The notes below the pieces were generated by a model. It was not told where the DNA came from and did no database searches. It saw only the letters and a list, made by a program, of their open reading frames with translations. From a bacterium (lineage in GTDB: Bacteria > Babelota > Babeliae > Babelales > JAUWHS01), in NCBI GenBank assembly GCA_043818275.1, contig JBDRFY010000013.1:1-35618 (forward strand): a stretch of 35,618 nucleotides of DNA, written 5' to 3'. Every line of letters starts with the position of its first letter. The stretch's first letter is position 1. Positions 26,979-27,903 of this stretch are shown here, in pieces. A program made the position numbers and the translations under genes.

Positions 26979-27125
26979 AAAAACTCCACATTTTTTTTAA
27001 TTTTTATAGTTTATTATCAAAAAATAACACTAAAACGAGACAAGTTATTTAATATTTTTTATACTATGTTTTTCATGATAAATTTACTATAAAATTCAAT
27101 TTTCATTGATATTATTGATATATAT

Positions 27126-27399
27126 GCGCCTCCCTCGATTTACTCGGGACCGGCGCCGCTTCCGCCTACGCATAAAGCTACGGCGGGCATGCAATTGAAA
27201 TATTTAACATTTATATGCGCCCATAGCTTCCTGCTTCGCACTACCGAAGGACAAATTTTTGGTATCGCTTCGCAGGACAGGCAATTGGGATAATGACCCT
27301 ACTTAATAAAATGTTGAAATTATTTAATTTTTCCCGCGCCCATAGCTTCCTCCTGCGTACCGCCAAATGGCGGCACTACGGCGGACAGGCAATTGGATA
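27126..27399 (+). repeat. Array of three tRNA-Arg 5' fragments, each interrupted by a mini-hairpin at the same position
   Basis: GCGCCCATAGCT[insert]CAATTGG(G)ATA at 27217-27292 and 27336-27399; degenerate copy at 27126-27202. Confidence 0.85.
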
Positions 27400-27410
27400 A
27401 AATAATTTTC

Positions 27411-27487
27411 GCGCCCATAGCTCAATTGGATAGAGCGTCAGACTACGGATCTGAAGGTTAGAGGTTCAACTCCTCTTGGGCGCACCA
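27411..27487 (+). tRNA. tRNA-Arg (ACG)
   Basis: GCGCCCATAGCTCAATTGGATAGAGCGTCAGACTACGGATCTGAAGGTTAGAGGTTCAACTCCTCTTGGGCGCACCA. Confidence 0.96.
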
Positions 27488-27525
27488 CCCTTCGTACCGC
27501 GAATAGCGGCACTACGGGTGGCAGG
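27485..27525 (+). repeat. Mini-hairpin element overlapping the tRNA-Arg CCA end
   Basis: CCACC-CTTCG-TACCGCGAATAGCGGCA-CTACG-GGTGG-CAGG, then CCACCC again. Confidence 0.8.
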
Positions 27526-27622
27526 CCACCCAATATTATTTAAAATTGAGAAACAACTGGCTTTATTTTTAGTTCTTTCAAATTTTTATAAATTAACAAT
27601 ACTTCGATAATACAAAGTCGGG

Positions 27623-27653
27623 CCTGCCCCGACGAAGCTTTAGCGAAGTCGGG
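27623..27653 (-). repeat. Mini-hairpin element at the tRNA-Ser(GCT) 5' end
   Basis: Plus strand CCTG-CCCCGA-CGAAG-CTTTAG-CGAAG-TCGGG; AAGTCGGG is repeated on both sides. Confidence 0.8.
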
Positions 27654-27778: not shown

Positions 27779-27873
27779 CCATTTTTTTTAAATGATTTTT
27801 TACAAAAATTATTTGATATTTTTGTTCTTTTAAATTTTTATAAGTTTATTCCTTTGCCAAAGCGAAGTTGGGG

Positions 27874-27903
27874 CCTGCCCACCGTAGCCTTGGCGAAGGT
27901 GGG
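27874..27903 (-). repeat. Mini-hairpin element at the tRNA-Ser(TGA) 5' end
   Basis: Plus strand CCTG-CCCAC-CGTAG-CCTTGG-CGAAG-GTGGG; the last GG is the tRNA 5' end. Confidence 0.8.

Follow-up and report, generated by a model that had tools for sequence, protein, structure and literature searches.

Upstream of the tRNA-Arg(ACG) gene in the window (the whole stretch of 35,618 nucleotides analysed here) stands a stack of three partial copies of the gene's own 5′ end, all of them interrupted by hairpin-like inserts that belong to a dispersed repeat family of the genome. The stack looks polar and its order chronological when compared with a related genome, and similarly plugged fragments recur beside tRNA genes in other members of the order. 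We propose that the array may consist of the scars of repeated breakage, linked to the hairpins and to small GIY-YIG nucleases, that was repaired by partial tandem duplication, a reading to which we give an even chance of being right. The window is contig C13 of an assembly of 1.33 Mb in 92 contigs with 30.8% GC, a metagenome-assembled genome (G000) with 4% contamination that belongs to an uncultured amoeba-associated bacterium.

The features of the locus are collected in Table 1. The initial annotation had described the 5′ part of the tRNA as recurring three times upstream, split by inserts of 31, 53 and 42 nt, and both the coordinates and a search with the first 12 nt of the tRNA agree with it. 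The exact 12-mer occurs only at 27217, 27336 and 27411 in the whole 1.33-Mb assembly; with up to two mismatches it has three matches in the window against 0.56 expected, a number reached in one of 100 shuffles. The decay with distance from the gene described there is also borne out, as unit 3 is identical to the gene at 22 of 22 nt, unit 2 carries one extra G and unit 1 is degenerate with a second insert.

Table 1. Features of the tRNA-Arg(ACG) locus, in window coordinates
Feature	Position	Strand	Basis
Flank copy F0, oldest copy of the tRNA gene 5′ flank	27100..27125	+	Alignment A1 with the flanks of the other units
Unit 1 (start of first partial 5′ copy), tRNA nt 1-5	27126..27130	+	
Unit 1, insert of 23 nt that follows nt 5, 'type B' (TCCCTCGA...GGGACCGG)	27131..27153	+	
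Unit 1, decayed tRNA nt 6-12, 4/7 identical	27154..27160	+	
Unit 1, 31-nt type A hairpin	27161..27191	+	Counterpart at the same site in G001
Unit 1 tail and flank copy F1 (CAATTGAAATATT...; tail begins CAATTG)	27192..27216	+	Alignment A1
Unit 2 (start of second partial 5′ copy), tRNA nt 1-12, exact	27217..27228	+	
Unit 2, 53-nt type A hairpin, subfamily with long AT-loop	27229..27281	+	
Unit 2, tRNA nt 13-22 and one extra G	27282..27292	+	
Spacer of unit 2; its 3′ part holds flank copy F2 (TTGAAAT motif)	27293..27335	+	Alignment A1
Unit 3 (start of third partial 5′ copy), tRNA nt 1-12, exact	27336..27347	+	
Unit 3, 42-nt type A hairpin, subfamily with nested mini-hairpin loop	27348..27389	+	
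Unit 3, tRNA nt 13-22, exact	27390..27399	+	
Short flank F3 immediately 5′ of the live gene	27400..27410	+	
Intact tRNA-Arg(ACG), CCA encoded	27411..27487	+	ARAGORN; Rfam tRNA, 71 bits
Hairpin module in the 3′ trailer, same repeat superfamily, with ...TGGCAGGCCA at its end	27488..27531	+	Fold z -2.1

Units within the array measure 75-119 bp, with spacers of 11-43 nt. The spacers had been taken for unrelated AT-rich sequence, a description that alignment A1 overturns: each unit opens with a copy of the gene's upstream flank, which carries a TTGAAAT-type motif. The F1 stretch serves twice, standing for tRNA nt 13-18 while it opens the next flank copy, and has 13 nt in common with the single unit of G001, a genome of the same genus. 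Where the TTGAAAT motif would stand ahead of the live gene, there is instead the D-loop fragment of unit 3. The three units differ from one another both in their hairpins and in their junctions.

The genes neighbouring the array encode T2SS-F, YggU, HIT, a hydrolase and an LRR protein, and there is no integrase, cas or nuclease gene within about 5 kb, in line with the earlier remark that integrase and cas genes are missing nearby. The 11-43-nt spacers of the array hold no trace of coding sequence, a scan of the locus for sigma-70 promoters and terminators gave nothing above shuffles, and Rfam at E<=1 returned only tRNAs and chance antisense matches, with no other family in the array. A tRNA intron, or a split or permuted tRNA, was rejected since the units hold only nt 1-22 and neither ARAGORN nor Rfam calls a tRNA there. 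A CRISPR array was also rejected, given that the repeated part is a tRNA start, that the hairpins differ and that no cas gene is near. As for the assembly, sequencing run X1, which may be of the source sample, has a 151-nt unitig identical to 27119-27269, from unit 1 into unit 2. Among the low-depth unitigs searched none covers 27270-27410, a stretch supported by the assembly alone, and read support for the array is accordingly partial.

The inserts that plug the units belong to two types. Type A has the form TCC...stem-loop...GGACAGG and is a dispersed, GC-rich family with inverted-repeat ends. The inserts had first been called mini-hairpins, but the folds themselves are only slightly better than shuffles: the predicted DNA folding energies of the array inserts are modestly better (z -1.3 to -1.6), that of the 23-nt insert is no better (z +0.5), and taken one by one none of these z-scores is significant. 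The 42-nt insert has six dispersed relatives of 77-88% identity (on C74, C62, C22, C18, C88 and C11), most of which sit in another repeat at GCT^CA with flanks that are not duplicated. Copies related to the 53-nt insert are found in tRNA-Ala trailers and near a tRNA-Pro gene on C18. The family prefers GCT^CA sites: a strict family pattern (TCC, stem, loop, stem, GGAC-tail) has 35 matches in the genome, and GCT lies at the left of 14 of them against about 0.8% expected from base composition, with five of the 14 being copies of one composite repeat. Because the three type A inserts of the array fall into different loop subfamilies, each with copies elsewhere in the genome, they point to separate events. 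That type A copies stand in other repeats without duplication of the flanks argues that insertion does not itself make the duplication, and a hairpin insertion that generates a long target duplication was rejected on these grounds.

The type B insert is found again, with its position unchanged, in units upstream of tRNA-Arg(TCG), tRNA-Arg(TCT) and tRNA-Met, and the Arg(TCG) and Arg(TCT) units share the TAG-to-CCG change of unit 1. Each of the four type B plugs (those of the units at 27154-27160 of the window, at C50:67232-67238, on C18 upstream of 25998 and on C41 upstream of 6457) is inserted after tRNA nt 5, with nt 6 and 10-12 retained and TCC or GCC in place of the tRNA letters at nt 7-9.

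GC-rich hairpins of related build follow most tRNA genes in the genome. These 3′ trailers, at 27488-27531 and at most other tRNA genes, share one plan, in which the encoded CCA and three further nt pair with a downstream GGN-TGG, CAGG and a second CCA then form an alternative short hairpin, and a T-run often comes after. Superfamily hairpins in reverse orientation abut the 5′ ends of both tRNA-Ser genes (27617-27651 and about 27870-27901), which have identical trailers and similar upstream flanks. Two further sites may be recorded here: a type A hairpin on the minus strand of C19 (index 5462 of the reverse-complemented contig) lies apparently inside a seeming coding sequence, and a hairpin repeat at C50:67540-67580, 75 nt upstream of tRNA-Arg(CCT), holds a 15-nt exact copy of the anticodon arm.

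The genome has five intact Y1 transposase genes (on C33, C36, C59, C76 and C60), one of them IS200-like and the other four RAYT-like, which could move hairpins. A separate family of double-hairpin repeats flanks the RAYT-like genes and has itself received insertions of type A hairpins, and no link of Y1 transposases to the type A hairpin was seen. An assignment of the type A hairpins to REP/RAYT or IS200/IS605 elements is not supported, as the repeat flanking the RAYT-like Y1 genes is a different one.

The tRNA-Arg(ACG) locus is not alone in its genome. A check of the other tRNA genes for interrupted 5′ fragments, which the initial annotation had recommended, found upstream units at four of 44 tRNA genes: three each at Arg(ACG) and Met and one each at Arg(TCG) and Arg(TCT), eight units in total, all eight of them plugged. 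Units at tRNA-Met have their plugs at other positions, and the copies end at tRNA positions of about 11, 35 and 21. Of the 44 tRNA genes, 14 have the TTGAAAT-type motif no more than 40 nt upstream, compared with 5.7% of random 40-nt windows, and in 13 it stands 10-22 nt upstream; it is seen in relatives too. It may be a promoter element of the lineage, and it resembles the D-loop sequence where several units end.

Evidence on the order of events comes from a comparison with relatives, of which G001 is the only same-genus genome compared. G001 has one unit at the Arg(ACG) locus, and the sequence after its hairpin matches the farthest of the three units here; at tRNA-Met it again has one unit, which matches the distal one of three; at Arg(TCT) it has none, where the source genome has one. 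Unit number also varies at greater distance: 28 order-level relatives have no clear unit at the Arg(ACG) locus (matches of up to 10 nt, at control rates), and where the array takes up 336 nt, a contig of run X2 from a more distant relative has 61 nt. From these alignments, new units seem to arise next to the gene, as they would if each event duplicated the live gene's start. The array had been called a chronological record of attack followed by regeneration. Its polar order is supported by G001 at both Arg(ACG) and Met, and the different hairpin subfamilies speak for separate events, but attack on an intact gene before duplication is only one possible order: most of the data also agree with a duplication that came first and a dead copy that received its hairpins afterwards.

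Plugged fragments of this kind are not restricted to one genus. A pattern for the plugged D-arm (TAGCT, TCC...GGACARG and CA) was applied to 201 genomes of the order, and gave 31 matches in 16 of them, a count in which related genomes are non-independent samples; the reversed control pattern gave none. Twenty loci were examined, and 19 of them have, 20-148 nt downstream, an intact tRNA gene with the same 5′ start; the genes concerned are tRNA-Arg (with four anticodons), His, Met and Val. The pattern for unplugged close duplicates has a single match, not tRNA-like, in one of the 201 genomes; with their plug taken out, roughly 13 of the 31 plugged units would fit the unplugged pattern, seven of these being from one array in G145.

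Several of these loci have more than one unit or plug. In G153 an old copy of almost full length bears three plugs, and the flank is repeated exactly over 27 nt. Of the two units in G152, where the locus also shows nested plugs, the distal one has decayed further, and G046 has two units whose hairpins have diverged. Two plugs in unit 1 of the window, three in G153 and the nesting in G152 indicate that extra plugs accumulate later. The array of G145 (C19:8659-9114) has seven identical 69-bp plugged units of a tRNA-Val(CAC) start directly upstream of the gene; it is a recent, ladder-like product of plain tandem amplification, and shows that arrays can grow by plain unequal crossing-over. Plain tandem duplication of an already interrupted fragment, which had been named as an outcome that would undo the first interpretation, is what happened in G145, but the array in the window differs from unit to unit in hairpin and junction. 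Outside the order, 15-mer scans of genome and metagenome collections gave mostly chance matches; of 240 loci inspected, six have a plugged fragment with an intact tRNA start no more than 600 nt downstream, at observed distances of 66-140 nt.

Small GIY-YIG nucleases are the candidate partners of the hairpins. The source genome has six small GIY-YIG ORFs of 80-109 aa, four of which lie 138-313 nt downstream of tRNA genes. A search for a co-occurring nuclease had been recommended; such genes lie near tRNA genes elsewhere in the genome, and none lies on C13. ORFs of 80-90 aa score 47-60 bits against PF01541 and consist of the GIY-YIG domain only; NCBIfam has no family for them, the group I intron endonuclease model TIGR01453 scoring 18.7 bits against a cut-off of 56, and sequence matches in the PDB are to SLX1 and UPF0213 proteins. 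Membership of a homing-endonuclease family was rejected on the size of the proteins, their single domain and the TIGR01453 score below cut-off.

Across the order, a type A hairpin in reversed orientation stands 53-60 nt upstream of the GIY-YIG match at seven of 34 loci examined, in six genomes. The seven-letter tail pattern is found upstream at only two of the 34, since the tail varies, and the five-letter core at ten. GIY-YIG genes follow a tRNA gene at nine of the 34 loci. Within the source genome, two of the four unit-bearing tRNA loci have a small GIY-YIG gene within about 400 nt downstream, and the same pairing is seen in G158. Among the first 41 genomes, plugs occur in three of 29 with small GIY-YIG copies and in none of 12 without, a count that has no power. 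The GIY-YIG gene that comes after tRNA-Glu on C6 has the C-terminal remnant of a second one downstream of it, at C6:11900-12020, a hint that cassettes are stacked on the 3′ side too.

How, then, might such a stack arise? On the reading that we prefer, the array would be a stack of scars at the DNA level and not a functional RNA array, each unit being a dead partial copy of tRNA-Arg(ACG) made up of the promoter-like upstream flank and the first 12-22 nt. The trigger would be a breakage or an invasion of the tRNA 5′ region, tied to the hairpin family and to the 80-residue GIY-YIG nucleases that accompany it, and the break may be repaired by recombination with a sister copy misaligned between the D-loop (TTGGATA) and the upstream motif (TTGAAAT). 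Each unit would be made by a short tandem duplication that includes the start of the live gene, so that the newest unit would adjoin the gene and older ones would be pushed upstream. The dead copy bears the type A hairpin at GCT^CA in its D-arm, and the survivors would be only those products that retain an intact tRNA. The sequences themselves establish the anatomy of the units, the dispersed family with its choice of site, the polarity, the return of the pattern at other tRNA genes and in other genomes, the scarcity of unplugged duplicates and the hairpin beside GIY-YIG genes. We infer the cutting by a nuclease at this locus, its role as the cause of duplication and the order of plug and duplication. 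An experimental precedent is SegB, a GIY-YIG enzyme that cuts inside tRNA genes and leads to recombination-dependent tandem amplification (PMC13096335, main text), and the main text of the Ssn study provides a precedent for tiny GIY-YIG enzymes paired with dispersed hairpins (PMC11893778). The pairing of small GIY-YIG genes with tRNA loci and the intact cassettes of G041 described below also speak for this reading. Against it stand the lack of a GIY-YIG gene on C13, the plug-bearing genomes in which no homologue of the nuclease turned up, the flanks of type A insertions elsewhere that are not duplicated, the later accumulation of plugs, the plain amplification in G145, the poor agreement of the hairpins with the published SRM consensus, their unremarkable folding energies and the presence of Y1 transposases.

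A wider claim can be formulated on this basis, which we put forward tentatively and hold to be somewhat more probably wrong than right. It is that an undescribed kind of selfish DNA, composed of GIY-YIG nucleases and their cognate hairpins, repeatedly breaks or invades essential single-copy tRNA genes in Dependentiae and in unrelated lineages, and that the survivors rebuild the promoter and 5′ end and so leave an ordered stack behind.

The closest competitor, a live if less probable account, dispenses with the nuclease. Here the duplications would be spontaneous, by slippage or unequal exchange between the D-loop and the upstream motif, and hairpins mobilised by another route, such as the Y1 transposases, would soon afterwards plug the dead copy, with insertions into the live gene lost by selection. 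Its preference for GCT^CA would bring the hairpin into the dead copy. Such an account agrees with the similar short motifs at the junctions, with type A insertions elsewhere that have no flank duplication, and with multiple and nested plugs as signs of later arrival, and it draws further support from the plain amplification in G145 and from the five intact Y1 genes. It is also favoured by plug-bearing genomes that lack a detectable nuclease: in four of ten further ones (G085, G096, G106 and G149, 84-95% complete) no homologue of the 80-residue nuclease was found at E<=1e-5. It fits less well with the state of the units, since all eight in the source genome are plugged, including the youngest, which is still identical to the gene at all 22 nt, and since 31 plugged matches stand order-wide against one unplugged match that is not tRNA-like. 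The different repeat family around the RAYT-like genes speaks against the transposase route, and the hairpin at a fixed distance upstream of GIY-YIG genes counts against the account as well.

Alternatively, the units could be remnants of an autonomous cassette, comprising a hairpin, a GIY-YIG gene and a replacement flank with tRNA 5′ end, that homed into the tRNA gene and later had its nuclease gene deleted. We regard this as improbable for the array, even if cassettes of this form exist. In G041, a metagenome-assembled genome recorded as Planctomycetia, a GIY-YIG ORF lies between exact 43-nt and 29-nt repeats of flank and tRNA start; there are two such intact cassettes, at tRNA-Gln and tRNA-Arg(CCT), one with an old copy plugged by a 20-nt palindrome, and the same genome has a plugged Arg(ACG) unit devoid of a gene. 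G014 may be read in a similar way, with a GIY-YIG gene 82 nt upstream of tRNA-Arg(ACG) at a point where the contig ends, and with a variant of the reversed hairpin. Within the order, however, no GIY-YIG gene examined lies between tRNA 5′ repeats, and the nine of 34 that adjoin a tRNA gene in the manner described above follow it. The cassette account would require three clean deletions at one locus, and the short spacers of the array retain no coding trace.

Far less probable is a functional array, whether as a leader for expression or processing of tRNA-Arg, as a source of RNAs that resemble tRNA fragments or as a decoy for hairpin insertions. The copying of the TTGAAAT-type motif into each unit, together with its enrichment before tRNA genes, would suit a regulatory role, as would the D-loop fragment that takes the place of this motif before the live gene. 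Against such a role, the array is absent at the locus from the 28 order-level relatives and the X2 relative, two species of the same genus differ in their hairpins and in how many units they have, the distal units are decayed, Rfam recognises no family but tRNA and the promoter scan stayed at chance level. Hardly credible, finally, are mis-assembly of the 92-contig, 4%-contaminated genome, for which the error-prone nature of repeats and the lack of read support over 27270-27410 may be cited but which is countered by the exact unitig from unit 1 into unit 2 and by comparable units in metagenome contigs and 15 further genomes of the order, and att-site scars of a conventional integrase-borne element, an option of the initial annotation that we discard as the genome's three tyrosine recombinase genes are on C46, C18 and C68 only and none lies within 5 kb of the array, it is the tRNA 5′ end that is duplicated and the units are only 75-119 bp.

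If breakage and repair by partial tandem duplication is the right reading, small hairpin/nuclease elements would regularly target essential single-copy tRNA genes in reduced genomes, and these genes would stay intact by way of partial tandem duplications that leave a time-ordered stack of scars. Such stacks would provide a natural relative clock for insertion events, and would point to new pairs of hairpins and nucleases, of a kind now sought as tools for single-stranded DNA. The finding on phage SegB, in which a nuclease drives the amplification of tRNA genes, would then extend to bacterial chromosomes. For annotators, these loci advise caution with pieces of pseudo-tRNA and with promoters that were possibly rebuilt from tRNA fragments.

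Among known systems, partial tRNA copies at att sites are alike in having one incomplete and one complete copy in direct orientation, but in the example given in the main text of PMC9897764 they are separated by about 21 kb, with one at either end of a genomic island, and not by 75-119 bp. The array here has no integrase, and has a hairpin inside the fragment. REP/REPIN-RAYT and IS200/IS605 systems share with it dispersed extragenic hairpins beside a conserved short target, an absence of target duplication and Y1 transposase genes in the genome; they differ in that the repeat family flanking the RAYT-like genes is not type A. Cassette arrays of integrons are likewise polar, with the newest unit at a fixed end and an imperfect hairpin at the end of each unit, but here no integron integrase is nearby and the units are gene-less copies of the neighbouring tRNA start.

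The architecture had been presented as unlike any described system. This holds in so far as full-text searches of the literature gave no description of stacks of hairpin-plugged 5′ tRNA fragments, and a study of tRNA gene fragments gives, in its main text, integrative elements and CRISPR as their only sources; it does not hold in full, as two systems come close. The first, the Ssn nucleases of single-stranded DNA with their NTS/SRM repeats, has a very small single-domain GIY-YIG protein (94 aa in SsnA, 80 aa here), an oriented, imperfect GC-rich hairpin that lies beside the nuclease gene and is also dispersed in the genome, GTC directly 5′ of the stem on one strand, and a host-associated bacterium as its carrier (PMC11893778, main text). 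The hairpins here miss the published SRM consensus, which has no match in the genome and 0-1 in five block-shuffled controls, and they and the nuclease genes sit at tRNA genes, with hairpins that plug dead tRNA copies; the word tRNA is absent from the main text of PMC11893778. The second, the free-standing SegB of phages T4 and T6, is encoded next to tRNA genes and gives rise to tandem amplification of a tRNA-containing segment (PMC13096335, main text), of which the structural outcome alone is seen here, including the seven units of G145. It differs as a phage enzyme that acts on double-stranded DNA and amplifies whole functional tRNA genes under selection, and the main text of PMC13096335 has neither hairpin repeats nor dead, plugged 5′ fragments. 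The hairpin-plugged tRNA 5′ stack, for which we found no description in print, accordingly has its close relatives in Ssn/SRM and in SegB-driven amplification.
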